A DNA stretch of 64,000 nt, from NCBI GenBank assembly GCA_003554845.1, contig PWHK01000020.1:6895-70894 (forward strand), written 5' to 3'. Made by a program: the position numbers and the translations under genes. Below the pieces are notes generated by a model. It ran no database searches, was not told the origin of the DNA, and worked only from the letters and a program-made list of their open reading frames with translations. The stretch comes from Candidatus Aenigmatarchaeota archaeon. Lineage in GTDB: Archaea > Aenigmatarchaeota > Aenigmatarchaeia > PWEA01. Within the stretch, counting starts at the first letter, position 1; each line of letters opens with the position of its first letter. Of the stretch, positions 40,010-60,719 are shown one piece after another.

Positions 40010-40032
40010 TATCTTGAATTTTTGTGATGTAA

Positions 40033-41136: not shown

Positions 41137-41168
41137 AAAATAAAAAACAAAATATATTGAATGATACC

Positions 41169-41282
41169 ATGGAAGCAAATATTTCGGTCCTGCTCTGGGT
41201 GATGGTAGCTTTTGTCCTATTTGCACTTTTGGTTGTATTTACTGCCATGTTCTTTGCCGATACATTTGGGATTTTGATATAA
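41169..41282 (+). CDS. small hydrophobic ORF (37 aa, MEANISVLLWVMVAFVLFALLVVF ...)
   Basis: Single TM helix. Its TAA stop overlaps the ATG of the next gene (TAATG). Confidence 0.3.
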   Translation: MEANISVLLWVMVAFVLFALLVVFTAMFFADTFGILI

Positions 41283-42571: not shown

Positions 42572-42633
42572 GATCCCTCATTAGATTAAAACTTATAACA
42601 CATAGCCAACATGTATAATATGAGGATGTTTGC

Positions 42634-42816
42634 ATGGAAAGAAATTCTAAATATATCTTTTCCAGTGGTGAGATAAGCATACAGGTCGTAATCATAATAA
42701 TACTCATGTTGATAGGACTCACTGTTGTCCTTATAATATCATCCGGTGTCGGTGGTTTTGGAACAAATGTATCATCGAATATAATGGGATATCTAGCAGA
42801 TGCTATAGGTGCATGA
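42634..42816 (+). CDS. small pilin-like protein (60 aa)
   Basis: Short polar N-terminus then a long hydrophobic helix. Confidence 0.35.
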   Translation: MERNSKYIFSSGEISIQVVIIIILMLIGLTVVLIISSGVGGFGTNVSSNIMGYLADAIGA

Positions 42817-42818
42817 AA

Positions 42819-42971
42819 ATGGAATACGATAAAAAAGGTTTTATAAGTATAATTATGCTTCTGATCATAGCACTTGTGGCACTATCGGTGGGTCTTATGC
42901 TTATACATGCCTTTTGGGGAGGCGGAGGAGGCTTGTTGAATCTACTCATTCAGAGACTCCAAATGGTATAG
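42819..42971 (+). CDS. small pilin-like ORF (about 50 aa, MEYDKKG|FISIIMLLIIALV)
   Basis: Translated by hand. KKG-hydrophobic class III-like start. Not in the supplied track (under 60 aa). Confidence 0.3.
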   Translation: MEYDKKGFISIIMLLIIALVALSVGLMLIHAFWGGGGGLLNLLIQRLQMV

Positions 42972-42979
42972 GTGAAAAA

Positions 42980-43126
42980 ATGTCTATATTCAACGATACG
43001 CTTATAATTTTTCAAAAAAACACAAAGATAATATTCGCCTTAATAGTTTTTGCCCTTCTTATAGGTATACTTTACTACACAATAAATCCTCTGATAGACA
43101 CGTTAATGGGGGCTATAGGTTATTGA
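42980..43126 (+). CDS. small membrane ORF (48 aa)
   Basis: MSIFNDTLIIFQKNTKIIFALIVFALLIGILYY ... Confidence 0.3.
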   Translation: MSIFNDTLIIFQKNTKIIFALIVFALLIGILYYTINPLIDTLMGAIGY

Positions 43127-43127
43127 T

Positions 43128-43844
43128 ATGAACATAATCAACAAGAAGGGTTCAAGATCGCAGAGCGAGTTCATATTTCTTGCAATAAAGGCAGTAATAG
43201 GTATCTTGGCTATAGGTGTTATTGCATTGAGTGTCAGGGGCATGGAGACAGGCTGTAGTACACATGACGAAAATCCATCGGCATGTATAAGCAATACAGA
43301 ATGCAGACCTGCGGTCAGAAGAGAAAAAAGCACATTTTCTATACCTGTTGATATTATGCGGTCTGTAGATATAGTCTATCATACAGAAATAACCGGCGAT
43401 ATAGAATGTCGGGATTCCATAAGGACTCCCAACAACAGATACCACGCCGCAGAGGATGCTCAGTGTGTCTGTCCTGTTGGGTGGGAAGTAATTTTAGACA
43501 GAGAAGATCAGTACTATGGAGTCTGTAGGCTACCAGGAACCAACAACTATCACCCATGTGAGTATCCACCCGACGGCGAACGACAGGAAACAGAATTCAA
43601 AGACATGTGTGAAGATGGAGATAGATACCACGGAGAAGTCTGGATCGACGGAACAGATGAAGAAGCTCCAAATATGTGCTGCGATGATGGAGATACAAAA
43701 GAGTGTGACTCCGATAACATAGATGAAAAATGTGGTGATCTGGTCTGTATTGAAATAGAGGTTGAAGTCGAAGACGGAGAAGAGGAAGAAATCACTTTCT
43801 GGATAGATGAAGAGAGTGTACCTGATATAGAATACATAATTTAA
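43128..43844 (+). CDS. class III signal peptide protein, cysteine-rich mid-size paralog A
   Basis: MNIINKKG|S ... GCSTHDENPSACISNTECRPAV and YHGEVW ... CCDDGDTKEC shared with 43872. Confidence 0.5.
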   Translation: MNIINKKGSRSQSEFIFLAIKAVIGILAIGVIALSVRGMETGCSTHDENPSACISNTECRPAVRREKSTFSIPVDIMRSVDIVYHTEITGDIECRDSIRTPNNRYHAAEDAQCVCPVGWEVILDREDQYYGVCRLPGTNNYHPCEYPPDGERQETEFKDMCEDGDRYHGEVWIDGTDEEAPNMCCDDGDTKECDSDNIDEKCGDLVCIEIEVEVEDGEEEEITFWIDEESVPDIEYII

Positions 43845-43871
43845 AATACACAAAATAAAAAATGAAGCAGA

Positions 43872-44528
43872 ATGTTTTCAAAAAAAGGTACTGCTAAATC
43901 ACAGGAAGAAACACTTTGGTTTATAATCAAGATAGCTATAGTAATCATAGGATTTGTAATTCTAATTGTTGCTTTTCTTAGGATGGAGGCAGGCTGTAGC
44001 AGGCATGATGAAAATCCATCGGCATGTATAAGCGACGAGAGCTGTAGACCTGCAGTTAAAGAGGTGGACTCAGGATGGGACATATATGCATCACTGTATG
44101 GATCATACCGAACGGAAGTGGTGGGTAAGATAGAGTGCAAAGAATCCGTAAGAAAACCTGATACAAGACACCACGCAGCCCATGATGGAAAATGTATATG
44201 CCCGGGTTTCTGGGAAGAAATTATAGACAGAAATCATGACTACTTCGGTGTATGCTATACTGATTACAATGGAGAAGAAATGTACTATCCTTGTCAGTAT
44301 GGCCTAAATGTTCAGGTCGAGGAAATAAAGGACAGTTGCGAAAGCGTTGAAAAATACCACGGAGAAGTATGGGGCTCCGGTTGGAATACCCCCGATAGAT
44401 GTTGCGATGACGGCGAAGTAAAGAAATGTAATATACTCAACAGTGGTGAAACTTGCGCAGACTATACATGCAGATCTGGCCCAGCCAAGCATCAGGTTGT
44501 CGATATCCAGTACTACTGGCAGCCATAA
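43872..44528 (+). CDS. class III signal peptide protein, cysteine-rich mid-size paralog B
   Basis: MFSKKG|T ... GCSRHDENPSACISDESCRPAV and YHGEVW ... CCDDGEVKKC. Confidence 0.5.
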   Translation: MFSKKGTAKSQEETLWFIIKIAIVIIGFVILIVAFLRMEAGCSRHDENPSACISDESCRPAVKEVDSGWDIYASLYGSYRTEVVGKIECKESVRKPDTRHHAAHDGKCICPGFWEEIIDRNHDYFGVCYTDYNGEEMYYPCQYGLNVQVEEIKDSCESVEKYHGEVWGSGWNTPDRCCDDGEVKKCNILNSGETCADYTCRSGPAKHQVVDIQYYWQP

Positions 44529-44572
44529 ACTGCAGTGCACCTTTCAAAAAGATTTAAACAAACACAACAAAG

Positions 44573-44995
44573 TTGTATACGATGAACACCCCAGCAAAGG
44601 GCATAGGCGTAGGAAAATCCCTTACGTTAATACTGATACTGGTTATTCTCTTGTTTACAACCGTCTTAATAGGTGATATATTTACATCCGTGCTTGGTAT
44701 GGGCGTAGGAGATGAGTTCCACATTACAATGGGAGAATTATCTGTATCCTACACTACATCTAGCTCTTTTCAGGAAAAAACTGTTATAGAAGAAAATCTT
44801 CCGATGGCCTGCGAAAAAGTTGTATTTAGAAACAGCACACTAAAGGCCTACCTGGAACATGATGAATTTTACTTTATACCATATACCACACAAGAAATGG
44901 ATAAAGACTTTGAGGTGGAATGTGATTCCTTTGGTAGGGTAAAGTTTATTGACGGAAGGATAGAATCATCTAGCCCTGTCGCTGGAACATTTTAA
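44573..44995 (+). CDS. pilin-like protein (140 aa)
   Basis: MYTMNTPAKG|IGVGKSLTLILILVILLF. Confidence 0.45.
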   Translation: MYTMNTPAKGIGVGKSLTLILILVILLFTTVLIGDIFTSVLGMGVGDEFHITMGELSVSYTTSSSFQEKTVIEENLPMACEKVVFRNSTLKAYLEHDEFYFIPYTTQEMDKDFEVECDSFGRVKFIDGRIESSSPVAGTF

Positions 44996-44997
44996 TT

Positions 44998-45888
44998 ATG
45001 GTGCATAAAATGAAAAACAAAGGAACAACCGGAGGAGACTACATATGGCAGATACTGTTTGTTATAGTAACGATAACCTATCTTGGTGCCTTTTATGTTA
45101 TATTTATAGCCGGTTCAACAGTAGATGTCGAAGGTTTTGAAAGAACCCAGGGAAGACTACAGAGTTCCGCTGCCCACACCAGACTTTTGTCACATCCCGA
45201 TTTTATTTCTACAGGAGAGATCGGCGTATTCGATGAATCACTTCTCAATTCCAAGAACGGCACAGAGAAGCTAGAAGAACTCTACAACCCATCGCTCTGG
45301 ATTTATGTAGAGATAGAAAACATGGAAAACGACGATAAATACATATTTGGTACACCCGGGCCCCTGAAAGCAACGGAAGGATGGTTGACTGAGGATGGGA
45401 ATATGGATACATGGGAAGATGAAGAAATGAGTTCCTGGGATCACGTGGTCGGTAGATACAGTACATTAGTAAACATAGACACCGGCGACGGATTCGATCT
45501 AGCTAAACTATATCTTTACTTCCGGCAGATACCCGACCCTATGATAAAGTTAAAGGAGGGTATTCATATAGCCAGGGAAGAAGGAAGCCATACAGTTACA
45601 CTTTTGCACCCAATCGCGATATGCTGGGAGTACGACTACACGCTATCGGGAAGATACTGCTCAGAAGACGAAGATTCCTTTTCAATAGACGTAAGCCACT
45701 CAGATAAAATAAAGGGTAGTTTTGGTGGATACATGCACCTGAAAGACGTAGAGTTGAAGGCATTCAACGAGGAAGAGGAAAAGTTCGAGATAGACCCGCC
45801 CGGTAGGTTCACGGATGGAAAAATAGACATAGAACTTGCTCATACCGGCGGTAAAACGGTAGAATATGAAATAGTTGACAGATGGTAA
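44998..45888 (+). CDS. pilin-like protein (296 aa)
   Basis: MVHKMKNKG|TTGGDYIWQILFVIVTITYLGAF. Confidence 0.45.
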   Translation: MVHKMKNKGTTGGDYIWQILFVIVTITYLGAFYVIFIAGSTVDVEGFERTQGRLQSSAAHTRLLSHPDFISTGEIGVFDESLLNSKNGTEKLEELYNPSLWIYVEIENMENDDKYIFGTPGPLKATEGWLTEDGNMDTWEDEEMSSWDHVVGRYSTLVNIDTGDGFDLAKLYLYFRQIPDPMIKLKEGIHIAREEGSHTVTLLHPIAICWEYDYTLSGRYCSEDEDSFSIDVSHSDKIKGSFGGYMHLKDVELKAFNEEEEKFEIDPPGRFTDGKIDIELAHTGGKTVEYEIVDRW

Positions 45889-46420
45889 AATGAAAAAATT
45901 AATCGGTAGAAAGGGTGGCTTTATGGTCTTGTTAGCCACGCTTATATTCACCGCCGTGTTCTTAATTACTCTGTTTATAGTCGGTCCCTTTATAGGAGGG
46001 GCGCAGATGGAAATAGAAGTAATGTCAGAAAATCCCGCCGGATTCAGCATAGAGAAAAACACACTTCTCAGAACCAATGAAACAAAAAGAAAACTTATGG
46101 CTTTTGGTGAGGGAGATGAATCAGTAGACGAATCCATCGCCAGGACAAGCGACAAATTCGGTGGGACCTATTCGGATTCCCATATACTACTTTTTAGGTT
46201 CGAAAAGGATGATGATGTAGAGATAGTCGGTTTTTCGTGTTCGGATGGATGTGGATACATAGAAGGATATGAAGAAGAGATGGATATTATCTTAAAAAAT
46301 TCAGAAGTAGTAGCACCGAGACCCATAATGTTACCAAAAGGCAAGATGGGATCCTCATATTCTGTCTACTTCAACCCCGAGGAAATGGCCGCACGGGTTA
46401 TGCAAGGCACACAATATTAA
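45875..46420 (+). CDS. pilin-like protein (181 aa)
   Basis: GRKG|GFMVLLATLIFTAVFLITLFIV. Overlaps the previous gene by 14 nt. Confidence 0.45.
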   Translation: MTDGKMKKLIGRKGGFMVLLATLIFTAVFLITLFIVGPFIGGAQMEIEVMSENPAGFSIEKNTLLRTNETKRKLMAFGEGDESVDESIARTSDKFGGTYSDSHILLFRFEKDDDVEIVGFSCSDGCGYIEGYEEEMDIILKNSEVVAPRPIMLPKGKMGSSYSVYFNPEEMAARVMQGTQY

Positions 46421-46427
46421 TGATAAA

Positions 46428-46985
46428 ATGTTAGGAAACAAGGGATTGAAAATTACGATATTAGTTTTCTCGGCAGTATTGATAGGCGTTACCTTAGCAA
46501 CAGCGGTAGTTGTGGGTGTAATGACGTACCACGGAGAGGAACAGTCCTGGTTCGGACAGGGTGAAAGAGTTACAGCAAAGGTCCAGTACGATCATGCACT
46601 GGGTGCAGTAGAAGATTCGTTTTTACTGGGTATATACTGGGGTATACAGGAATCAGGCAATGACTGGGAAAATGCAGAAGAATCCATCGAGGAAGAAATA
46701 GAAGAAAAAATAAAGCATTATTTGGATAGGATAGAAGGTTTTTACGAAGGTAGTTATGATACGCAACCCATCTATCTTGAAACAAGAATACGGATCGATG
46801 ATGTTGAAATTGAATTATACTTAGACGAAGAAACCATAGACAGTGTAAAGATGTCAGGTAATATGACTTCCTACAGGAACCAGCCCTCGATAGCAATATC
46901 CGATGATTTTTACATCGAAGAAAACTTCCAGGAAAACTACTCAACGCTCTATGATATGTCAAATAATCCATTAGAAAATATGTAA
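46428..46985 (+). CDS. pilin-like protein (185 aa)
   Basis: MLGNKG|LKITILVFSAVLIGVTLA. Confidence 0.45.
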   Translation: MLGNKGLKITILVFSAVLIGVTLATAVVVGVMTYHGEEQSWFGQGERVTAKVQYDHALGAVEDSFLLGIYWGIQESGNDWENAEESIEEEIEEKIKHYLDRIEGFYEGSYDTQPIYLETRIRIDDVEIELYLDEETIDSVKMSGNMTSYRNQPSIAISDDFYIEENFQENYSTLYDMSNNPLENM

Positions 46986-47020
46986 ATTTTATAAGAAAGG
47001 GAGGGTCATTTAACATTAAG

Positions 47021-48001
47021 ATGAAGGAAAAGGGGTTCATGTTTGGAATAACACCGGTCGTTCTTTTAATCCTAGGTGGTTTGGTCGTGCTTGTATTTTC
47101 CGTGGGATCGGGAACCTTTTTGGAAATTTCTGAAGGTCTTATAGATGTAGGAGAGGAGGAGGCAAGAAGGGTCCACAGGAGATTTAAATATCCTATCTTG
47201 AGACATGAACTTCCAGAGGAAGGATTTCCCGATGAAGGATCGGGACAGGTTGTGACCTCCTGTAGATCCATAGGATCAGAGGGTTCTTATCAACTACAGG
47301 ACTCTATAGAATGCCCTGATCACGAACCAATCGAAGAGTTCAGGGGAACGCTGGATGGCCGTGGACATGAAATATCCGATCTAAATGTACCTCTATTTGA
47401 AATGATATCATCGGAGGGCACTGTGAAAAACATTAGAGTTTCAGGGGTGGATATACATCAAGAAGACTCCGCAGGCGGTCTTTCGGTGACAAACCAAGGA
47501 ACAGTTGAAAGGGTACATGTTTCCGGAACAGTTCAGGGCGGAAGCTATGTTGGTGGCCTTACTGGAATAAACAGTGGAAATATAAGGAAATCTTCCTCCA
47601 CGGCAGACGTAGGTGGAACAATCAATGTAGGAGTACTGGTAGGACAACATACCTCCGGCTCCGTAATAAATTCATATACGATCGGTTCTGTAAAAGGCAT
47701 ATCAAATGTAGGCGGATTAATAGGTTCTGGAAGTGGAGAAGTAGATAAAACATATGCAGCCAGTTATGTAGATGGTTCTACCAATGTACAAGGGTTGGTA
47801 GGATCTGGTTCTGCCAATTCAGTTAAAAACTCCTTCTGGAGCACTGACACATCTGGAATTCTCCCTGAAGAAATTTCTGGGAGTATTATAGGAACGCCGA
47901 AAGTCGACGAAGCCATGGAAGACAAGGAAATCTATGTTTCCACGAGAACGGATGGTCTAGAAGAGCCATGGGACTTCGATGAAATATGGACCATGGGGTA
48001 A
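47021..48001 (+). CDS. pilin-like protein with GLUG-type glycine-rich repeats
   Basis: MKEKG|FMFGITPVVLLILGG. Then about four ~27-aa repeats containing GGLTG / GGLIG / QGLVG, ending FWSTDTSG, as in GLUG-motif surface proteins. Confidence 0.55.
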   Translation: MKEKGFMFGITPVVLLILGGLVVLVFSVGSGTFLEISEGLIDVGEEEARRVHRRFKYPILRHELPEEGFPDEGSGQVVTSCRSIGSEGSYQLQDSIECPDHEPIEEFRGTLDGRGHEISDLNVPLFEMISSEGTVKNIRVSGVDIHQEDSAGGLSVTNQGTVERVHVSGTVQGGSYVGGLTGINSGNIRKSSSTADVGGTINVGVLVGQHTSGSVINSYTIGSVKGISNVGGLIGSGSGEVDKTYAASYVDGSTNVQGLVGSGSANSVKNSFWSTDTSGILPEEISGSIIGTPKVDEAMEDKEIYVSTRTDGLEEPWDFDEIWTMG

Positions 48002-48002
48002 A

Positions 48003-48164
48003 ATGAACTACATTCTTTCAAAAAAAGGGCTACAGTTCCATATTCTACTTTACATAATACTGGGACTTATCGTACTAACTATCATCGCTACCCAAGCACT
48101 AACCACAGAAGGATTCTTCGATGGGTTTTCCGATCTACTTAGGGAGATTATATTTTCAAGCTAA
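48003..48164 (+). CDS. small pilin-like protein (53 aa)
   Basis: MNYILSKKG|LQFHILLYIILGLIVL. Internal Met of the listed ORF chosen as start. Confidence 0.35.
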   Translation: MNYILSKKGLQFHILLYIILGLIVLTIIATQALTTEGFFDGFSDLLREIIFSS

Positions 48165-48208
48165 GTTAAACCATAAGTTTTAAATCAGACAGTCGATAAG
48201 GTTTAACC

Positions 48209-48466
48209 ATGAAAATCAAGTCCGGGAAGAGATTAAAGCCTCTGTACCTCGGAGCTCTGGTTTTAAGTTTGATAGTGATCCTTTCCATAATAGTTTTAAG
48301 CCTGGATATAACAGAGGGGCCCACCAAAGAAGATGAACTAAGCCGTTCTTGTGTAGGCTACCTCCAGAGAAACTGTTGCAGTAATCCAGAAATAGGTCGG
48401 TGCCAAGAGTTTGAAAACGAATTATGGACACACCAAGAAGATCCGTTTGATATATGTTGTGAATAA
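48209..48466 (+). CDS. small cysteine-rich membrane-anchored protein (85 aa)
   Basis: N-terminal TM helix and 7 Cys in the C-terminal 40 aa. Confidence 0.4.
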   Translation: MKIKSGKRLKPLYLGALVLSLIVILSIIVLSLDITEGPTKEDELSRSCVGYLQRNCCSNPEIGRCQEFENELWTHQEDPFDICCE

Positions 48467-48469
48467 ATA

Positions 48470-48781
48470 ATGTCAACTAAAAAAGGCTTAGGAGGCTCAA
48501 TTAGAATCGTCGTAGTATCAATAATCGTACTTGTTATTTTGTTCCTTGTTGCCACTTTTTTTGTCACAGGAAGTGAAGAACTGACGGAAATGGGGTTCCG
48601 CGGAAAGACCGAACTGGCCTGCCATAGATTCGAAACCAGGGGATGCTGCATAAACTACGATGAAGAGGATCCCGGACAGTGTGCTGTAGACAAGATATGG
48701 GAAGGCTACAACGAAGAAGAAATGGACGAAGAAGAATTAGAAAAACTGGAGGAAGTCGACTGGGAAGAAAAATGCTGCTGA
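48470..48781 (+). CDS. small cysteine-rich pilin-like protein (103 aa)
   Basis: MSTKKG|LGGSIRIVVVSIIVLVILF. Acidic Cys-rich tail ending CC. Confidence 0.45.
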   Translation: MSTKKGLGGSIRIVVVSIIVLVILFLVATFFVTGSEELTEMGFRGKTELACHRFETRGCCINYDEEDPGQCAVDKIWEGYNEEEMDEEELEKLEEVDWEEKCC

Positions 48782-48790
48782 GGGGATAAA

Positions 48791-49060
48791 ATGATTTCAA
48801 AAAAAGGTCTTGCGCTTCCGGTTACGATAATAATAGTCTTAGTTATATCCATTATAGTTCTGCTTATACTGATTACATTCATGGGATGGGGATGGGAAAC
48901 GGGGCCTATAAACCAGACACAGGAAGGAATAGACGAACAGTACGAAGAACAAGACCCTCTAGGAGATATATTCAACTCGACGCAAAATCACCACAGGACA
49001 TCAAAACACACACACAGGCCTGGTATACATACGGTGGAGGAATGGTTGGATGCTCGATAA
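48791..49060 (+). CDS. pilin-like protein (89 aa)
   Basis: MISKKG|LALPVTIIIVLVISIIVLL. Confidence 0.45.
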   Translation: MISKKGLALPVTIIIVLVISIIVLLILITFMGWGWETGPINQTQEGIDEQYEEQDPLGDIFNSTQNHHRTSKHTHRPGIHTVEEWLDAR

Positions 49061-49358
49061 AAGGGGTATAGAGCTTTCAATAAGGTTAATAGTTATTCTG
49101 CTTATCTCCACAATAGTACTTCTAGCAGTTCTCGTATTTTTCGGCAATGTGTGGGATACAAGTCCATTTGAACATGCCATGGGAAACTTAACGGAACAGC
49201 AGTCAGATCTAGGCAGTAAAAATCTCGGTGGTTTTGGAAGGATGGTGCGCCTGCCGGGATTTTCAGAGACATTGGAAAGATCAATGCTTCCTTTGAACCC
49301 GGGCTTCGAGCATGGGAGGCTCGAGTCCTACCAGACTAGACCACAGGCGCATATTTAG
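49050..49358 (+). CDS. pilin-like protein (102 aa)
   Basis: MLDKRG|IELSIRLIVILLISTIVLL. Overlaps the previous gene by 11 nt. Confidence 0.45.
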   Translation: MLDKRGIELSIRLIVILLISTIVLLAVLVFFGNVWDTSPFEHAMGNLTEQQSDLGSKNLGGFGRMVRLPGFSETLERSMLPLNPGFEHGRLESYQTRPQAHI

Positions 49359-52343: not shown

Positions 52344-53366
52344 ATGGGTGTGGATATCGCGGATCTCATTGAACCTGAAGAATCTTCTTTAGATGCATTC
52401 AAAGGCAGGACCTTTGCAGTCGATTCACTTAATATGATGTACCAGTTTCTTTCGATAATAAGACAACCAGACGGAGAACCGCTTAAAGACTCAAAGGGGA
52501 GGGTAACGTCCCACCTTTCAGGTCTATTCTACAGAACTGCAAAGCTTGTGGAATATGAAATAAAACCATTCTACGTCTTCGACGGAAAACCCCCTGAATT
52601 CAAAAAAACTGTAAACAGGGAAAGAAGGAAGAGAAGAGAAAAAGCAAAGGAGAAACACAAGGAAGCCCTTAGAGAAGGAAAAAAGAAAAAGGCAAAGAAG
52701 TATGCCATGCAGTCGGTAACTGTCCAGGAAGAAATGGTACAGCAGTCAAAGGATTTGCTTGACGCCATGGGAATACCCTGGATACAGGCCCCGGGTGAAG
52801 GAGAAGCACAGGCTGCATTTATGGCAAAGGGAGGTGATGCCTGGGCAGTAGGAAGCCAGGACTTTGATTCGCTTCTATTCGGCGCTCCTGTTCTCGTAAG
52901 AAACCTAACAATCACCGGAAAAAGAAAGCTCCCAAATAAAAAAGAGTATGTGGAGATAAGGCCAGAGAAGATTGAACTCGGAAAAATACTAGATGGTTTG
53001 GGGATTAGTAGGGAGCAACTAGTTATAATGGGAATACTGGTAGGGACTGACTATGCTCCAGGTGGAGTAAAGGGTATAGGACCTAAGAATGCTTTAAAGA
53101 TAGTAAAGAAACATGGAGATCTCCGCTCTGTGATAAAAGAAGTCGACTGGTCATTTGAAAAGGATCCAGAAGACATAATGAATCTCTTCATGAATCCATC
53201 CGTTACAGAAAACTACAGTTTGGAATGGCATGAACCCAGAGAGGATGACATTAAGAAGTTTCTATGTGACGAACATGACTTCTCCGAAAACAGAATCAAA
53301 AAACCCATAGAGAAACTGAAGAAAAATAGAAATTCAGGGACACAGTCAAGGCTTGATTCCTTCTAG
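52344..53366 (+). CDS. fen: flap endonuclease 1 (FEN-1)
   Basis: XPG-N/XPG-I domains (MGVDIADLI ... AVDSLNMMYQFL ... GEGEAQAA ... ). Confidence 0.9.
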   Translation: MGVDIADLIEPEESSLDAFKGRTFAVDSLNMMYQFLSIIRQPDGEPLKDSKGRVTSHLSGLFYRTAKLVEYEIKPFYVFDGKPPEFKKTVNRERRKRREKAKEKHKEALREGKKKKAKKYAMQSVTVQEEMVQQSKDLLDAMGIPWIQAPGEGEAQAAFMAKGGDAWAVGSQDFDSLLFGAPVLVRNLTITGKRKLPNKKEYVEIRPEKIELGKILDGLGISREQLVIMGILVGTDYAPGGVKGIGPKNALKIVKKHGDLRSVIKEVDWSFEKDPEDIMNLFMNPSVTENYSLEWHEPREDDIKKFLCDEHDFSENRIKKPIEKLKKNRNSGTQSRLDSF

Positions 53367-54605
53367 ATCGAGTTTAACGCCAAGTAAGTCGTACACAATT
53401 TTTTCGATATCATCTCCCATACTTCCGAGGTCTCTGTTGATTTTTCTTATCTCCTCTTCTTTCTTTTTCAGTCTTTGTCTGAGTTCTTCGATTTCTTCGT
53501 TCTTTCTTTTTACTTTGTTATTGATAGAACTGACTTTGTCTTCTATGGAGAGACTTTCAATGGACTTCTCTGCATCTTCTATCTCTTGTTTGAGTTTGGT
53601 TATGGACTCTATGCAGTCCTTTATATCGGAAAGATCTGTTTTATTAAGCTCAGATTCCAGCCTTTGGGTCTCGTCTTCAGAAAAATCAAGTTCGTTTCCA
53701 TCAAGACTACTTTCGAGTCTTCCAACTGTATCTCTTAGGAATAAAAGATCATTGTCCCTTGTTGCAGTCTCCACAGGTGATTTAATATAACCTTCAAGCA
53801 TCTCTTCTCTTCCACCGTCGATTCCAAAATACTTCATCTTCTTGAAGCCTCTCTTCAGGGGAGCAATAGAGGTTCGGATTCTGTTCTCCTGTTTCTTTAT
53901 CCTTTTTTCTAGATCAGTAATTTTTTCTTTCTTGGACTCTATGGCTTCTGTATCCTCGGATATTCTGATATTCTTCAGTCTATTTTTCAGATTTTCCCTC
54001 TCTCTCAGGCTATCCTCCAGCTTCCGTTCTATATTTTTCTTTTCTTCAAACAGATCCGGAAGCCTTCTTCTTTTCTCAGACATCTCTCTGTACTTTCTGA
54101 CTACAGAAACCGTCCTTTCTAGGTCTTCGTCCACGTCTAACCTGTTTTCCAGGTCTTTCATACTGTCCACTATGTTCTTTGTAGCATCGGGCTGGGCCTT
54201 GCTAAGTACAACAAGACTCTTCTTGACCTTGTCTGATATCTTATCGAGCTCGGATGATTTCTCCGAAAGAAAACGTTTCATTTTGGAATATCCTTCCTCA
54301 TCCGGAACTTCGAAGTGGTCTATAAAACTCCGGAGTCTTCCGATTAAAACCTTTCTGTTCGAAACAGCCATCTTTCTCAGCCTTGGAGAAATATCATCCG
54401 GAACTTCTGTATCCTCGAATCTATCCAGAGAATTCCCAAGACTTTCCACAAAACCGTCTATCCGAGAATATATATAATCCACGTCACTCCACTCTAAGTC
54501 CTCGAGACCCTCCAGCTCGTTGTAGAACCAGTCTTCAAACTCCTGGAAAACAACGGATTCCTCTCTTTCCTGGTCGTCGGACAGGAAACCAAACAATGGA
54601 GACAT
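53346..54605 (-). CDS. hypothetical long coiled-coil protein
   Basis: 419 aa, highly charged heptad-rich. Chosen over the antisense 211-aa low-complexity ORF. Confidence 0.45.
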   Translation of the reverse strand: MSPLFGFLSDDQEREESVVFQEFEDWFYNELEGLEDLEWSDVDYIYSRIDGFVESLGNSLDRFEDTEVPDDISPRLRKMAVSNRKVLIGRLRSFIDHFEVPDEEGYSKMKRFLSEKSSELDKISDKVKKSLVVLSKAQPDATKNIVDSMKDLENRLDVDEDLERTVSVVRKYREMSEKRRRLPDLFEEKKNIERKLEDSLRERENLKNRLKNIRISEDTEAIESKKEKITDLEKRIKKQENRIRTSIAPLKRGFKKMKYFGIDGGREEMLEGYIKSPVETATRDNDLLFLRDTVGRLESSLDGNELDFSEDETQRLESELNKTDLSDIKDCIESITKLKQEIEDAEKSIESLSIEDKVSSINNKVKRKNEEIEELRQRLKKKEEEIRKINRDLGSMGDDIEKIVYDLLGVKLDLEGIKP

Positions 54606-54627
54606 ATCTAAAACTTCTTTTCTGAAC

Positions 54628-55278
54628 TCAAAAACCTTTCTCTCCCTTCAGCTCAACGAAACGGTAACCCCTTTCCTTTCTTATAGTCTCGACACTGTTC
54701 TCATCTGTCTTCTCTACGACAACCAGATTGTGTAGAACTGCACCCGAAACAGGACATACTATCCTACCACCAACCTTCAGCTGATCGATCCATTCGTCCT
54801 GTATCCTCGGTGAAACTGCAGTACATATTATACCATCGTATGGAGCATACTCACCTAAACCCCAGGAACCATCCCCAACAAAAACATGTACATTTTCCTT
54901 ACCTACATCCCTCAGTTTCTTCCGTGCCTTTTCTGCCAGATCATCCACCAGCTCGACCGTGTACACCTTACCCGACTCTCCAACTACATCAGACAGTACA
55001 GCAGACTGCCATCCTGATCCCGTTCCTATCTCAAGCACCCTATCTCCTTCCTTCACTTCCAAATATTCTGTCATCTTAGCCACGACCGAGGGCTGCGACA
55101 CTGTCTGACCATGGCCTATAGAAAGAGGTAAATCCAGATATGCCCGTTCAACCTCATCATCCGGAACAAAGAGGTGTCTTGGAGCTCTTCTTATGGCCTT
55201 CTCAACATGGTCTGATGTAAGATTACCTTTGGCCTTCATACGTTCAATTAAAGAATCGATGTCCTCTTGTTTGTTCAT
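54628..55278 (-). CDS. pcm: protein-L-isoaspartate O-methyltransferase
   Basis: GQTVSQPSVVA and VLEIGTGSGWQSAVL motifs. Confidence 0.85.
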   Translation of the reverse strand: MNKQEDIDSLIERMKAKGNLTSDHVEKAIRRAPRHLFVPDDEVERAYLDLPLSIGHGQTVSQPSVVAKMTEYLEVKEGDRVLEIGTGSGWQSAVLSDVVGESGKVYTVELVDDLAEKARKKLRDVGKENVHVFVGDGSWGLGEYAPYDGIICTAVSPRIQDEWIDQLKVGGRIVCPVSGAVLHNLVVVEKTDENSVETIRKERGYRFVELKGEKGF

Positions 55279-55316
55279 AGAAAACCTTTTAATTATCGCT
55301 CCACATAAAGTTTTCT

Positions 55317-56171
55317 ATGTCGATGCCCGATGTCGATGAGACCGTAAGGAAGATAAAGGATCTTGAAATACAGGGTGCACAGACAATAGCCAGGGAGAGT
55401 TTAACGGTTCTTTCTAAGATAGTCGAAGAGGAAGGCTTCAGTGATAGATTCAACAAAGCAGCAGAAAAGCTAAAAAATGCACGGCCGACTGGTGTCTCCG
55501 CCCATAACTGTATAGACTTTGTAAAGAGAAGAGGTGAAATCGAAGCCATAGATGCAACCATAGACTATCTCAACACAGCAAAGGACGATGCAGGCAGGAT
55601 AGCTGCAGACATGGTGGAGGATGAATCCATAATACTTACACACTGCCACTCCTCTGCTGTAATATCAGCCTTCGAGAAGATGATGGATCTCGATAGAAAC
55701 TTCAGGGTCATAGTCACAGAAACAGAACCAAAGTTACAGGGAGTTAAAACCGCAAAGGAACTCCACGACATGGGCGTTCCCGTTAACTATATAGTAGATG
55801 CAGCAGCCGGTCTCTACATGTGGGCTGCAGACTACGTCTTTGTAGGCGTGGACTCGATCAAACCGTCGGGTGTGTTGAACAAGATAGGAACATATCTGCT
55901 ATCATTGGCTGCCGCCGAAGACGACGAAACAGAGTTCTGGTTTTTGGCCACGAAGGACAAGTTCGACTACGACAACTTTTCAACTCTGGAAGAAAGATCA
56001 CCCGACGAAATACAGGAACACGAGCATCTAGAAAAGAAGCATGAGCTTGTACTTGAAAACCCTGCCTTTGACATAACACCCTGGTCGAAGATAGACAAAC
56101 TAATAACAGAGGACGGTGCAATGAAAAAACATGAAATAATGGAAGAGTTAAAAGGAAGGTTTACAATATAA
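55317..56171 (+). CDS. ribose-1,5-bisphosphate isomerase (e2b2/eIF-2B alpha-beta-delta family)
   Basis: ILTHCHSSAVISAF ... VTETEPKLQGVKTAKEL ... GVDSI ... NKIGTYLL matches the archaeal R15P isomerase of the AMP pathway. Confidence 0.8.
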   Translation: MSMPDVDETVRKIKDLEIQGAQTIARESLTVLSKIVEEEGFSDRFNKAAEKLKNARPTGVSAHNCIDFVKRRGEIEAIDATIDYLNTAKDDAGRIAADMVEDESIILTHCHSSAVISAFEKMMDLDRNFRVIVTETEPKLQGVKTAKELHDMGVPVNYIVDAAAGLYMWAADYVFVGVDSIKPSGVLNKIGTYLLSLAAAEDDETEFWFLATKDKFDYDNFSTLEERSPDEIQEHEHLEKKHELVLENPAFDITPWSKIDKLITEDGAMKKHEIMEELKGRFTI

Positions 56172-56177
56172 CAAGAG

Positions 56178-57449
56178 ATGAAGCATATGAACTTTATAGA
56201 CACAGAATACGAACCAAAGAAAAACGATCTTATCTGCCTTTTCAAAATAGAACCATCAGAAGGCTTTAGTTTCGAAGAAGCCGCATCCAACATAGCCAAG
56301 GAGTCAAGCGTAGGAACATGGACACATATAGGAACAGTAAACGAAAGGGCCAAGAGAATAAAGGCAAGAGTATATGATATAGATAAACCATACGCAAAGA
56401 TAGCATATCCCAAGGAACTCTTCGAACTCGATAGCGTACCACAACTGCTCTCTTCTGTAGGCGGAAATATATTCGGAATGAAGCTTCTCAAAAGTCTAAG
56501 GCTCGAGGACATAAAATTTCCGCCTGGGATGGTGGACCAGTTCGATGGACCCCAGGTAGGTCTAAGCGGAATAAGGGACCTCTTTTCTGTAAAGGAAAGG
56601 CCTATGCTTGGAACAATTGTTAAACCAAAGCTAGGTCTGGACTCAAAGGGACACGCAGAGGTCGCCTACAAAGCATGGAAGGGTGGTCTTGATATTGTCA
56701 AAGACGATGAAAACCTTACATCGATGACTTTCAACACGTTCCGCAGAAGGATAGATGAAACAATGAAACTCAAGGAAAGGGCCGAAGAAGAAACAGGTGA
56801 AAGAAAGGAGTATATGGGAAATATAACAGCTCCTGTATCGGAGATGAAGGAAAGGGCCGATTACTTGATAGAAAAGGGAAGCAACTACGTTATGATAGAT
56901 ATAATAACAACAGGATGGAGTGCTCTACAAGAGATGCGTGACTACCTCGAAGGAAAGGATACTGTAATACACTGCCACCGCGCAGGACACGCCGCCTTTA
57001 CAAGGAGCAAGAAACACGGCATAAGTATGCTCACAGTAGCCAAACTCACAAGACTCATAGGAGGAGATCAACTACACATAGGCACAGCCGGTGTAGGGAA
57101 GATGGAAGGCGATGAAAAAAAAGTTCTCAGGATAGAGGAGTCTATAGAATCAAAGAAAATCAATGAAGAAAGAGGAAGGCTTGGTCAGGACTGGAAAAAT
57201 ATAAAGAAGGTCTTTGCTGTTGCATCCGGTGGTCTTCAACCAGGTAACATGCCTGGACTTGTTGGGAGAATGGGTAAGGACATTGTTGCACAGTTCGGCG
57301 GAGGCTGCCATGGACATCCCGATGGAACAGAGGCAGGTGCAAGGGCAATAAGACAAGCATGCCGAGCCGTTATAAACGAAGAAAATCTAGACGAAGCTGC
57401 AAAGGAAAACAGCGAACTGAGGAGGGCTCTCGAAAAATGGGGTCAATAA
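56178..57449 (+). CDS. rbcL: ribulose-1,5-bisphosphate carboxylase/oxygenase large subunit, type III
   Basis: VKPKLGL, KDDENLTS, GNITAP, HCHRAGHAAFTR, GGGCHGHPDG active-site blocks. Confidence 0.9.
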   Translation: MKHMNFIDTEYEPKKNDLICLFKIEPSEGFSFEEAASNIAKESSVGTWTHIGTVNERAKRIKARVYDIDKPYAKIAYPKELFELDSVPQLLSSVGGNIFGMKLLKSLRLEDIKFPPGMVDQFDGPQVGLSGIRDLFSVKERPMLGTIVKPKLGLDSKGHAEVAYKAWKGGLDIVKDDENLTSMTFNTFRRRIDETMKLKERAEEETGERKEYMGNITAPVSEMKERADYLIEKGSNYVMIDIITTGWSALQEMRDYLEGKDTVIHCHRAGHAAFTRSKKHGISMLTVAKLTRLIGGDQLHIGTAGVGKMEGDEKKVLRIEESIESKKINEERGRLGQDWKNIKKVFAVASGGLQPGNMPGLVGRMGKDIVAQFGGGCHGHPDGTEAGARAIRQACRAVINEENLDEAAKENSELRRALEKWGQ

Positions 57450-57694
57450 TAAACATAGGATGGATAGGAGCTCTGCTGCTTTTGGCTGCATGGATGCCCG
57501 AAACGATAACGACAATGAAAAGCGAGAGTCTTGAAGCACTGAACCCCAAGTTTATATTCTTCAGCTTTCTCGGATCGGTTTCACTTGCGCTCCATTCCTA
57601 CAGAATAGGCGACATGGCCTTTCTCTTTATGAACACAACTCTGTCTATAGTTGTTGCCATAGAACTCGCAGTTTATTTTTATAAATCAAACTAA
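57437..57694 (+). CDS. small membrane protein (85 aa) between rbcL and the AMP phosphorylase gene
   Basis: MGSIINIGWIGALLLLAAW ... with 3 TM helices. Overlaps the rbcL stop by 13 nt. Confidence 0.35.
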   Translation: MGSIINIGWIGALLLLAAWMPETITTMKSESLEALNPKFIFFSFLGSVSLALHSYRIGDMAFLFMNTTLSIVVAIELAVYFYKSN

Positions 57695-57704
57695 CTCTTT
57701 AGTT

Positions 57705-59189
57705 GTGTTAGCCATGGAAGCAAAGGTAAAGACCTTGGACATAAGAGCAGGCAAGCCCGTTGTAATTCTCAACCACAGGGATGCTGCAGAAAACTCCATA
57801 TTTCTCGGTGATAGGATATGCATAAACCACAGAGGAACAAAGGGGATGGCAATAGTCGATACATCAAAGGAGGTTCCAAGAAACCATGTTGTTCTCTTCG
57901 ACGAAACAAAGGAAAACCTATGTGTGAAAGAAGGGGAAACTGTAGTTGTAGAAAGTACAATAAAACCCGACTCCATTGAACACATAAAGAAAAAGATTGA
58001 TGGGGATTCTCTGAACTACGATGAAACCCTTTCCATAGTAAAGGATGCTGTAGATTTTCGTCTGACAGATTCAGAACTCATGGCCTACACAGTTGCAATA
58101 GAGATGTCAGAATTCTCTCTGGAAGAGGCAAAGGATCTGACAAAGGCAATGGTAGAAACAGGGGAACAGATTGATGTAGAAAATGCAGTCGATAAGCACT
58201 GCATAGGTGGAGTTCCCGGAAATAGAACAACGCCGCTTATAGTTTCAATTATTGCAGCAGCCGGATACAAAATGCCGAAGACCTCATCAAGAGCCATAAC
58301 CTCACCGGCAGGAACTGCAGATACCATGGAGGTCATCACGGATGTAGAGCATGATCTCGAAGATATAAAGAAAATAGTTGAAAAAACAAACGGCTGTTTT
58401 TCATGGGGAGGATCACTGAACCTCGCCCCTGCAGACGATGAGTTCATAAGGGTAAGAGACTCTCTGAACCTGGATCCACTTGAGCAGCTTCTCTCTTCTG
58501 TTCTTGCAAAGAAAAAGGCCGTGGGTGCAGAGACAGTTCTCATAGATATACCAATGGGAGATGGAACAAAGGTGGATGGTGACAAAGAGGCGACAGAACT
58601 ATCAAAGTACTTTGAACAACTCGGCCAGGAGCTTGATATGGATGTATTCACACTTATATCAGACGGCTCAAGTCCCATAGGAAAGGGTGTAGGTCCTGCC
58701 CCTGAAGCAAGGGATGTCCTGAAGATACTTAAATCAAATGGAAAGGAAGGTCCAGAGGATCTAAAAGATAAGTCCATCAAAATGGCAGATCTTATACTTG
58801 AAAGGGTTAATTCGAAGATGTCAGCAGAGAATATACTCACAAGTGGCGATGCATATGAAAAGTTCAAGGAGATAGTCAAGGAACAAGGAGGTGGAATAGT
58901 GGACCCAGAGGACGTAGAACTTGCAAAAAACAGAGAAACCATCGTGGCCGAGGAAGGAGGACGTGTAGATGACATATGCAACAAGTATGTAAATAAGATT
59001 GCAAAGGTTGCCGGGTGCTCAAAGGAAAAGAAGTCAGGCCTGTATCTACATAAAAAGAAGGATGATCCAGTGGAGAAAGGAGACAATCTCATAACCATAT
59101 ATTCAGAAAGTCCCAAGAGGCTTGAAAGGGCAGTTTCCATTGCAAAACAGGACAAAGTCTATACCTTCAAGTCGTTACTGTCAAAATAA
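57705..59189 (+). CDS. deoA: AMP phosphorylase (thymidine phosphorylase family, DeoA-like)
   Basis: 494 aa. N-terminal extension plus the pyrimidine-nucleoside phosphorylase core (DKHCIGGVPGNRTT ... TSSRAITSPAGTADTMEV). Confidence 0.8.
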   Translation: MLAMEAKVKTLDIRAGKPVVILNHRDAAENSIFLGDRICINHRGTKGMAIVDTSKEVPRNHVVLFDETKENLCVKEGETVVVESTIKPDSIEHIKKKIDGDSLNYDETLSIVKDAVDFRLTDSELMAYTVAIEMSEFSLEEAKDLTKAMVETGEQIDVENAVDKHCIGGVPGNRTTPLIVSIIAAAGYKMPKTSSRAITSPAGTADTMEVITDVEHDLEDIKKIVEKTNGCFSWGGSLNLAPADDEFIRVRDSLNLDPLEQLLSSVLAKKKAVGAETVLIDIPMGDGTKVDGDKEATELSKYFEQLGQELDMDVFTLISDGSSPIGKGVGPAPEARDVLKILKSNGKEGPEDLKDKSIKMADLILERVNSKMSAENILTSGDAYEKFKEIVKEQGGGIVDPEDVELAKNRETIVAEEGGRVDDICNKYVNKIAKVAGCSKEKKSGLYLHKKKDDPVEKGDNLITIYSESPKRLERAVSIAKQDKVYTFKSLLSK

Positions 59190-59517: not shown

Positions 59518-59640
59518 CTCCGTTTTTGTTCTGTTGTTTCAGATCTTTGAATTCTAGTATTTTTGAACACTATCTTCGCTTCCAGTTTAGTTGTTTAATC
59601 CACGAAAGTATTTAAAAGTTTTAGGAACAGCCACAGAGAC

Positions 59641-59976
59641 CTAATTGAGGCATGCAGGACAGTTTTCGGGTCCACCTGGAACAATATCGGAACAGTCATG
59701 CCATTCGCCACCGACCTGTACACATACATCGGCATTGGAAACAGGAGAATCTTCGGGTGCATCGCAGCTAAGGCCTGTTAGTTCACTTGACCAACTGCCT
59801 TCGTTGCAGTACTGAAAAGTAGAGACTGGACCACAACACATATTTATCTTGTTTCTGTCTTCTATGGCTCCTGTCTCAAAACCTCCCATAAAGAAGGCAA
59901 CCAGTGCTAGAAGAACTATGACGGCTACTGCAAGTATTACAAGCATGTTTACAGGAAGTGATATACCCTTTTTCAT
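59641..59976 (-). CDS. class III signal peptide (pilin-like) cysteine-rich protein, distal paralog 1
   Basis: MKKG|ISLPVNMLVILAVAVIVLL. Eight Cys in the C-terminal domain. Confidence 0.5.
   Translation of the reverse strand: MKKGISLPVNMLVILAVAVIVLLALVAFFMGGFETGAIEDRNKINMCCGPVSTFQYCNEGSWSSELTGLSCDAPEDSPVSNADVCVQVGGEWHDCSDIVPGGPENCPACLN
59700..59810. repeat. 111-nt segment identical to 60098-60208 (inside the paralogous pilin-like genes)
   Basis: Seen directly: identical string gccattcgccaccgacctgtacacatacatcggcattggaaacagg ... ccttcgttgcagt in both genes. Confidence 0.8.
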
Positions 59977-60038
59977 ACTGTCACCGAAGTAAAACTTAGA
60001 CTGATCTACTTAAAATATTATCCCATGCTCTGGAAAAA

Positions 60039-60380
60039 CTAGTTCATACAGGCAGGACAATTACCTGGCCCTCCGGGTATAACAGACGAACAGTCGTGCC
60101 ATTCGCCACCGACCTGTACACATACATCGGCATTGGAAACAGGAGAATCTTCGGGTGCATCGCAGCTAAGGCCTGTTAGTTCACTTGACCAACTGCCTTC
60201 GTTGCAGTGGTTAAAGGTTACTACAGAACTACAGCATCTACTTACAACAGTCTGCTCGTCCACAGCTCCTGTCTCGAAGCCTCCCATAAAGAAGGCAACT
60301 AGTGCTAGAAGAACTATAACGGCTACTGCAAGTATTACAAGCATGTTTATAGGAAGGGTAACACCTTTTTTTGAATTCAT
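60039..60380 (-). CDS. class III signal peptide (pilin-like) cysteine-rich protein, distal paralog 2
   Basis: MNSKKG|VTLPINMLVILAVAVIVLL. Shares identical DNA blocks with 59641-59976. Confidence 0.5.
   Translation of the reverse strand: MNSKKGVTLPINMLVILAVAVIVLLALVAFFMGGFETGAVDEQTVVSRCCSSVVTFNHCNEGSWSSELTGLSCDAPEDSPVSNADVCVQVGGEWHDCSSVIPGGPGNCPACMN
60098..60208. repeat. second copy of the 111-nt identical segment
   Basis: See 59700-59810. Confidence 0.8.
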
Positions 60381-60486
60381 TCAACCACTAGACTAAATCT
60401 ATCGACATGTTTATTTAAAAGTTTCCTTTGTAGGTGCTCAATGAGAAGTATTCAATAGTTAAATACCTTGAAAATAATAATGTACT

Positions 60487-60693
60487 GTGGATGGGGGGTC
60501 AGGGGTCTAGCCTGTCTCTTTAAGGCGTGGAGCGTGCGTTCCATAAGGTCCTTGAGGCCGGAGGAGCGTATGTGAGACGGACGGTAAAACACACGGGAGA
60601 AATCCGCGAATCGCGCCGTTTGGACAAGGCAACGGTGAGGAAGGTAGCCATGACCCTAATAACTTCCCTCCACACTTTTCCCAACCGAAAAAC
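60487..60693 (+). ncRNA. GC-rich structured RNA candidate, possibly signal recognition particle RNA
   Basis: A ~200-nt island of high GC in an AT-rich genome. TATA-like aaaataataa about 20 nt upstream. Contains AGGCCGGAGGAGCG and GGAAGGUAGCC segments resembling SRP RNA helix-8 strands. The 5' GCGUGGAGCG can pair with 3' CCCUCCACAC. Confidence 0.35.
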
Positions 60694-60719
60694 TTTTATA
60701 TATCACACCAAGAGAGTGA

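Follow-up and report, generated by a model that had tools for sequence, protein, structure and literature searches.

Two small tandem genes in the genome of a DPANN archaeon raise the question of how stretches of identical DNA came to lie within coding sequences that are otherwise strongly diverged. The genes, called here A and B, are found on contig PWHK01000020.1 (assembly GCA_003554845.1, Candidatus Aenigmatarchaeota archaeon), in a stretch of 64,000 nucleotides (positions 6,895 to 70,894 of the contig) that was analysed as a whole and is referred to below as the window; positions are counted from its first nucleotide. The explanation that best fits the data, to which we give as a whole a rough probability of 0.75, is that A and B are old tandem paralogues coding for two variants of a small pilin-like subunit, and that ectopic gene conversion transferred a short tract of B to A, in this species and after its split from its relatives.

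A preliminary description of the locus had reported two minus-strand genes coding for proteins of 111 and 113 residues, each with a KKG start, a hydrophobic helix and eight cysteines, and the corresponding open reading frames (ORFs) are indeed present. The eight cysteines of each protein lie C-terminal to the hydrophobic helix. The two copies are offset by 398 nucleotides (nt) and separated by a 62-nt spacer, and their products are 80% identical overall. Within the coding sequences, an identity of 111 nt starting at position 59700 had been noticed. Base-by-base comparison retains this identity and corrects its extent to 112 nt, starting at 59699; the run grows to 121 nt if one mismatch is allowed. 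A second shared block, which codes for the N-terminal helix, had been described as about 80 nt with three mismatches. This was nearly right, the measured values being four mismatches in 80 nt (59879-59958) and two in 70 nt (59882-59951).

The genes were codon-aligned and cut into four segments, corresponding to the helix (S1), the linker (S2), the identical block (S3) and the tail (S4). A and B differ at 10% of the bases in the helix, 46% in the linker, 1% in the block and 35% in the tail, in agreement with the earlier remark that the DNA between the blocks is clearly diverged. The synonymous divergence (dS), calculated from the few silent sites that each segment offers (11-25), is 0.28 in the helix, 2.9 in the linker and 0.04 in the block, and is saturated in the tail. 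Expressed as the proportion of silent differences (pS), linker and tail reach 0.73-0.90, which corresponds to saturation. When the 58 differences found over the 333 aligned coding nt are permuted, a run of at least 112 identical positions is obtained in 0 of 200,000 permutations (P < 5e-6). The longest run at third codon positions alone, 37, was likewise matched in none of 200,000 permutations. Moreover, among codons specifying the same amino acid in both genes, silent change affects 1 of 38 in the block vs 13 of 19 in the linker and tail (Fisher P = 1.4e-7). The tract is thus sharply bounded, with a silent divergence far under that of its flanks. Gene conversion, as first proposed for this locus, is strongly supported by the low dS of the block between saturated flanks and by segment phylogenies that conflict when orthologues are included.

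Related genomes inform on the age of the two copies. The nearest proteins are 'hypothetical proteins' encoded in metagenome-assembled genomes of Candidatus Aenigmatarchaeota from soda-lake sediments. Gene order is kept in eight species-level loci, with a CBS-domain gene, a GC-rich intergenic element that is probably an RNA, the pilin-like gene or genes, the Alba gene, the AMP phosphorylase gene, an ORF of 85 residues, the RuBisCO gene and an e2B2-like gene. A pair of pilin-like genes is found in the window and in loci L001, L008 and L013, and a single gene in L011, L015 and L024; in L023 the contig is cut. The flanking proteins are 63-81% identical between these species, and dS between window and L001 reaches 2.5 for the CBS-domain gene, 2.8 for AMP phosphorylase and 4.1 for a Cas4-like gene, with 0.81 for Alba. 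Protein B has an orthologue in L001 (P0002, 83% identity) at the matching syntenic place. In the segment equivalent to the block, the A and B genes of L001 differ at 45% of bases, and the copies of L001 and L008 group by type, with 10 informative sites supporting the orthologous arrangement vs 3 supporting the concerted one. Therefore, both types predate these species. No new alleles emerged from a scan of genome contigs, which gave three loci. A search of Joint Genome Institute (JGI) metagenome contigs with a back-translated VCVQVGGEWHDC pattern returned only the L001-type contig; it missed the short contig L022, the collection searched evidently being devoid of short contigs.

The direction of the transfer can be proposed from the same comparisons. 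The block of the window is at 18% nucleotide difference from the B gene of L001, and at 43-48% from both A-type orthologues and from the B gene of L008. For gene A itself, the block is 44% away from the A gene of L001 vs 18% from its B gene. In the 3' part of the block, 65 of 72 nt are shared with L001 B (7 differences). In addition, the block contains a six-codon insertion (APEDSP-VSNA) found only in B-types. Gene A nevertheless retains the N-terminal and linker signatures of the A-type (KG-ISLP with ATA TCA codons; EDR..IN) as well as the A position. As A-type and B-type orthologues are about 45% apart in the block and the block of the window is B-type, the duplication is old and the B-to-A conversion postdates speciation. 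Most simply, gene A received a short tract of B at that stage. Non-reciprocal homologous recombination thereby overwrote 112-121 bp in the head-coding part of the downstream gene A with the sequence of gene B, which lies 398 bp upstream. The present gene A is a chimera whose N-terminus and linker are A-type, whose head core is B-type and whose tail is diverged. Through the conversion the two copies have become more similar and not more diverse.

A weaker signal comes from the helix segment, where site patterns slightly favour within-genome likeness in the window and in L001 (5:3, 6:1 and 6:4, from small counts) and where dS is intermediate. This is weak evidence that the segment may have been homogenised earlier, in the genome of the window and in the sister genome, in addition to a strong amino-acid constraint.

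Other origins of the identical block were considered and ruled out. Purifying selection at the nucleotide level does not agree with the 18% of bases that differ in the B orthologue. A block that keeps the reading frame and has its orthologue in the head-coding part of L001 B rules out the insertion of a mobile element. Finally, an overlapping antisense gene can be discarded, the plus strand containing there only short, apparently spurious ORFs.

Three observations weigh against the proposed conversion. Tract and flanks were about 40% diverged before the conversion, and the priming of an exchange in such DNA is not readily explained by a simple heteroduplex model. The tail of A resembles that of B-types in protein sequence (PGGP.NCPAC.N) but not at silent sites; two or more events, or a donor from outside, may have shaped this part of the gene. 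Lastly, the linker of gene A is 40-52% away from every known A-type or B-type linker.

As for the nature of the proteins, a motif scan found in both of them a [KR]G[IV][ST] motif and, after it, a hydrophobic stretch free of charged residues. The N-termini comprise a charged stretch ending in KKG, then I/V-S/T-L-P and an uncharged hydrophobic run (MKKG followed by ISLPVNMLVILAVAVIVLLALVAFF in A; MNSKKG followed by VTLPINML... in B). The rule summarised for archaeal processing sites, with a charged residue at position -2, G, A or S at position -1 and then a hydrophobic domain (H-domain) of about 20 uncharged residues (PMC4371748), fits A and B. The first 30 residues are nearly invariant between species in which the proteins are about 70% identical overall. 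Across homologues, the LPINMLVILAVAVIVLLA.VAFF segment is nearly unchanged; the heads vary, most of them containing a CC motif and C-terminal cysteine pairs. In an AlphaFold2 model of protein B, based on 27 sequences (predicted local distance difference test score 82.6), residues 11-34 and 38-55 form helices and the small head contains one hairpin. When 1.84 billion representative sequences were searched with a profile, 730 relatives passed E <= 0.001, of which 99 also passed E <= 1e-10 and 5 reached E <= 1e-30. The best 150 of these 730 are mostly of about 100-130 residues, and many match mainly the N-terminal part of the profile.

The genomic context points in the same direction. The window contains genes for a likely assembly machinery, namely an ORF (34393-36675) matching the T2SSE-type ATPase family PF00437 (E = 7.7e-14) and an ORF (36656-38731) matching the T2SSF-type platform family PF00482 (E = 3.5e-5; 24.2 bits, just below the 25.2-bit cutoff). 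Next comes the main cluster, whose ORFs have N-termini that resemble class III signal peptides. The last of these ends near 49.36 kb, so that the pair does lie about 10 kb from the cluster, as had been described. Two small ORFs at the end of this cluster (48791-49060 and 49050-49358) are the closest relatives of the pair within the window, through the N-terminus only (residues 1-42; BLASTP E = 2.5e-10 and 5.6e-6). From these features, A and B are probably type-IV-pilin-like proteins. A prepilin peptidase would cut behind the KKG of the class III signal peptide, the near-invariant hydrophobic helix would pack into the filament core with the disulfide-rich head of about 65 residues exposed, and the T2SSE/T2SSF machine encoded 21-26 kb away would assemble the subunits. 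Going one step further, the small size, the conserved core, the conserved, strong TATA-like element, the fixed synteny and the distance to the machinery would point to a major subunit, as for PilA1-6 of Haloferax.

The pilin-like nature of the proteins rests on the motif, the predicted helix and the genomic context, and several results count against it. Curated pilin models stay below threshold (Pilin_N, PF07790, E = 0.27-0.51 and 11.7-12.5 bits vs a cutoff of 25.2), and an NCBIfam scan of both proteins gave no match at E <= 1. A sequence profile search of the PDB returned chance matches only, and Foldseek matched the AlphaFold2 model to nothing in the PDB but foldon fragments, with E above 6. 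Among the transmembrane-rich ORFs of the window, no prepilin peptidase (PibD/FlaK/EppA, Peptidase_A24) was seen; these ORFs comprise a rhomboid protein, SpoIIM and unknowns instead. The lack of any significant match to pilin families or solved pilin structures, the 21 kb that separate the pair from the ATPase and platform genes and the lack of a peptidase in the window would all be expected if A and B were not pilus subunits but small membrane-anchored or secreted Cys-rich proteins, with an N-terminus that is class III-like only by resemblance. This possibility is nevertheless unlikely. The LPINMLVILAVAVIVLLA.VAFF hydrophobic segment is extremely conserved, as for a filament-core helix and not for a simple anchor; the motif obeys the archaeal processing-site rules; the N-terminus is common to the pair and to the small ORFs that end the pilus cluster; and major pilin genes unlinked to pilB/C are also known in Haloferax (PMC4371748).

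Regarding the history of the genes, the comparison between species brings an additional pattern. Between the B orthologues of the window (60094-60356) and of L001 (6001-6336), dS is 0.36 in the helix, 1.41 in the linker, 0.27 in the block and 1.42 in the tail, with values above 2 in neighbouring genes. The block has undergone ordinary amino-acid change between these two species (ratio of non-synonymous to synonymous divergence 0.67), and its silent divergence is low by Fisher tests, both vs linker and tail (P = 0.002) and vs AMP phosphorylase (P = 1.4e-6). One sediment sample, 3300000557, contains contigs of four of these species, one of them identical to the window. As a hypothesis built on small site counts, pilin segments may have been exchanged between species, or blocks may serve as anchors between which variable cassettes are swapped.

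This leads to a different scenario for gene A, in which a long conversion or a re-duplication first made the whole gene like B, and linker and tail were later replaced from diverged alleles of other strains or species by means of the helix and head anchors. In such a scenario no conversion has to be primed in 40%-diverged DNA, and the equal distance (40-52%) of the gene A linker from all known linkers finds an explanation. The alternation of dS along the B orthologues of the window and L001, with a 3' part of the block that is 90% identical between species, and the co-occurrence of four related species in sample 3300000557 would fit as well. However, gene A still has A-type codons (ATA TCA; EDR) in an A-type position, no donor allele for linker or tail was found among 5.8 billion proteins, and each segment offers only 11-25 silent sites. 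The replacement of linker and tail in a fully homogenised gene therefore appears improbable, and somewhat more so than the proposal that the proteins are not pilins.

The preliminary description had favoured a recent duplication. The 80% identity of the two proteins would agree with it, followed by fast divergence outside the blocks, but linker and tail have reached saturation at silent sites (pS 0.73-0.90), where change cannot be sped up by selection. Moreover, A- and B-types are orthologous across at least three species, including those of L001 and L008, and between these species silent change is saturated in the neighbouring genes (dS above 2). A recent origin of the pair is thus contradicted and very improbable.

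The same description had named an assembly artefact as the outcome that would undo its proposal, and independent contigs do not bear this out. L006 and L007, assembled with MEGAHIT from two other samples, differ from the window at 1 and 0 of the 1301 nt between 59400 and 60700, respectively. The JGI contig L022, from another project and another assembler, has its first base within the block, at 59799, and agrees with the window at 2073 of 2073 nt, through the tail of A and Alba. These are three contigs assembled independently from other samples with at least two assemblers, and they show 0-1 mismatch. The exact protein A is present on four contigs of other assemblies. Since the mosaic recurs in independent assemblies, the identity is real. 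Chimeric looped contigs at this locus in two MEGAHIT assemblies indicate that assemblers struggle there, but collapsed or duplicated reads or mis-joining in the assembly graph are the least probable of all explanations, given the linear sequence repeated in other samples with 0-1 mismatch, the contig from another project that ends inside the block and runs perfectly into the tail of A and Alba, and a k-mer length (141) larger than the 112-121-nt repeat.

These looped contigs carry a protein of their own. The 90% protein cluster contains A, B and one chimera only; the chimera is its representative, P0001, and joins residues 1-97 of A (head and block) to the tail of B. It is encoded on L004 and L005, two contigs of 539 nt (k141_833810 and k141_694747; samples ERZ27266004 and ERZ27265986) whose first 141 nt are identical to the last 141 nt, i.e., a 398-nt cycle plus k = 141. 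The loop runs through the B tail, the spacer, the A head, the block and the B tail. Both looped contigs share one single-nucleotide polymorphism in the spacer (window position 60004) that is missing from the linear contigs. The chimera resembles the internal copy of a triplication produced by unequal crossing-over, and the odds that it is a real structural variant are roughly even; the looped contigs may alternatively reflect a loop in the assembly graph. If the variant is real, the identical block would now serve as a substrate for unequal crossing-over, which would have yielded the A-head/B-tail chimera in two metagenomes. Among the linear contigs of other samples, no variability beyond 0-1 mismatch was seen, and the chimera is confined to the looped contigs. 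It is the sole hint of recombination at the population level.

Two further parts of the preliminary description are not supported as they stand. Conversion had been called ongoing, and the same mosaic sequence is found in independent assemblies with 0-1 mismatch. A likeness to antigenically variable pilins had also been drawn. No silent partial cassettes were found, A and B both being full-length and no further copies of the block being present in the 34-64 kb region, and the two copies were made more alike. A broader view can be put forward only tentatively, and we regard it as rather unlikely. In a DPANN archaeon that depends on a host, recombination would shuffle the head of the main pilus subunit, with the helix and the Cys-rich core as anchors flanking a hypervariable linker and tail. 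The anchors would then mediate conversion, unequal crossing-over that resizes the array, the chimera being an internal copy, and exchange among co-occurring Aenigmatarchaeota species. If true, this shuffling could tune attachment or host specificity.

The features of the locus, with the machinery and the main cluster, are collected in Table 1.

Table 1. Position of the genes, shared blocks and putative expression signals in the window.
Feature	Position	Strand	Basis or remark
Gene A, downstream copy, inferred recipient	59641-59976	minus	ORF, 111 residues, MKKGISLP...
Gene B, upstream copy, inferred donor	60039-60380	minus	ORF, 113 residues, MNSKKG followed by VTLP
Tract inside gene A, 112 nt identical to 60097-60208, coding for CNEGSWSSELTGLSCDAPEDSPVSNADVCVQVGGEWH	59699-59810	minus	base-by-base comparison
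Donor copy of the 112-nt tract, in gene B	60097-60208	minus	exact run
Block of gene A coding for the N-terminal helix, about 95% identical to 60265-60356	59867-59958	minus	comparison with B
Block of gene B coding for the N-terminal helix, counterpart of 59867-59958	60265-60356	minus	comparison with A
Transcription factor B recognition element (BRE)/TATA-like element GAAACTTTTAAATAA upstream of gene B, putative promoter	60411-60425	minus	nearly invariant in five species
TATA-like element ATATTTTAAGTA upstream of gene A, of putative function	60007-60018	minus	in the 62-nt spacer
Likely assembly machinery: T2SSE-type ATPase (34393-36675) and T2SSF-type platform protein (36656-38731)	34393-38731	plus	21-26 kb from the pair
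Main cluster, at least 8 ORFs with N-termini like class III signal peptides	38780-49358	plus	motif scan

Each gene of the pair is preceded by putative expression signals. The GAAACTTTTAAATAA element is located about 30 nt upstream of a Shine-Dalgarno (SD)-like GTGRT motif and the ATG of gene B. An (A/G)TTTTTAAGTA element is also found in the spacers of L001 and L008. SD-like GTGRT or GGTGA motifs precede each ATG, and a T5 run directly follows the stop codon of gene B. With their own TATA-like elements, SD-like motifs and starts, both genes therefore look independently expressible, and the locus does not have the design of a silent cassette. The scan for sigma-70 promoters and intrinsic terminators is uninformative for an archaeon. 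A 13-mer, AAACTTTTAAATA, occurs twice on the minus strand (59609-59621 and 60412-60424), upstream of the Alba gene and of gene B, and looks like a shared strong BRE/TATA element.

On the other side of gene B, a GC-rich element of about 185 nt (60490-60680, plus strand) separates this gene from the CBS-domain gene and occupies the same position in all eight loci. It is much better conserved than the neighbouring genes, and RNAalifold predicts from the 8 sequences a structure of 48 pairs, compensatory changes being seen at 15 of these. The element has its own TATA-like box, AGTTAAATACC (60458-60468), oriented divergently from the putative promoter of gene B, and it ends in a T-run. No Rfam match was obtained for it, either at gathering thresholds over the whole window or at E <= 1 over 60381-60719. 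It is probably a structured RNA outside known Rfam families, on which spurious ORFs of 54-82 residues were called in L015 and L023. On the Alba side, genes for AMP phosphorylase, form III RuBisCO and an e2B2-like protein (ribose-1,5-bisphosphate isomerase family) occupy 53346-59189 and adjoin the pair in all related loci, from which their Pfam assignments were taken. This set corresponds to the archaeal AMP salvage pathway.

The main cluster also contains paralogues. Two Cys-rich tandem ones (43128-43844 and 43872-44528, plus strand; 238 and 218 residues) share a 51-nt stretch that is 90% identical, and larger proteins with class III signal peptides (38780-40009, 40033-41136 and 41282-42571, plus strand) share stretches of 38-64 nt that are 66-87% identical. 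Long identical tracts like those of the distal pair were not seen among the paralogues of this cluster. At its end, ARAGORN predicts a tRNA-Gly (CCC) on the minus strand (49263-49346) that overlaps the 3' part of ORF 49050-49358, while the Rfam tRNA model is silent at its gathering threshold; either the tRNA-Gly call or the end of this ORF is doubtful.

In the pilE/pilS system of Neisseria, DNA coding for the pilin head is transferred non-reciprocally, and conserved segments with the cysteine codons alternate with hypervariable ones. The archaeal pair resembles this system in the non-reciprocal movement of head-coding DNA between pilin paralogues and in the alternation of conserved and hypervariable segments. 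It differs from it in that both genes are complete and preceded by promoter-like elements, there is one donor, the event homogenised the copies, and no high-frequency variation is seen across samples. The likeness to Neisseria is thus weak, a mechanistic flavour only. The involvement of gene conversion in antigenic variation has been reviewed (PMC5422504). The lpl cluster of Staphylococcus aureus also consists of tandem surface-protein paralogues, in which a conserved central region is the site of recombination and the 5' and 3' variable regions are shuffled (Tsuru and Kobayashi, 2008, PMC2568036). The 398-nt loop of B tail, spacer and A head corresponds to a recombination unit as described for that cluster. 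Unlike the lpl cluster, the present locus has two copies only, rearranged arrays are merely hinted at by the looped contigs, and the genes are archaeal and pilin-like.

In archaea, gene conversion between ancient duplicates is known for mtrA of methanogens (PMC4632066). There the converted genes encode an enzyme subunit of the cytoplasm or membrane, and conversion has lasted long, unlike the short recent tract in a surface protein considered here. The closest parallel in protein organisation is offered by PilA1-PilA6 of Haloferax volcanii, several small pilin paralogues with a nearly fully conserved H-domain and divergent heads, whose genes are neither linked to nor co-regulated with pilB/pilC (PMC4371748). 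In contrast to these pilins, the proteins of the pair match no family and have a tiny head with eight cysteines, their genes are in tandem with an explicit conversion tract, they belong to a DPANN archaeon, and they are known from sequence alone. Type IV filament loci reported in DPANN archaea (system 1, Aap-like, subsystem 4A) comprise an ATPase, a platform protein, pilins plus a class III signal peptidase, with a high variety of pilins (bioRxiv 10.64898/2026.04.22.720090). The window resembles them in its minimal set of ATPase, platform and pilin-like proteins, but the pilin family of the pair is named in none of the libraries searched. In all, the event is clearly an ordinary ectopic gene conversion between tandem paralogues, a well-known process that is here cleanly documented.

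DPANN archaea are thought to need physical attachment to their hosts, and pili are prime candidates for the contact. The locus defines an unannotated family of small Cys-rich pilin-like proteins that occupies a fixed syntenic position in Aenigmatarchaeota and whose exposed head would evolve as a mosaic through recombination. If real recombination lies behind the looped chimeras and the low silent divergence seen between species, this family would provide a tractable example of how surface structures diversify in uncultured archaea.

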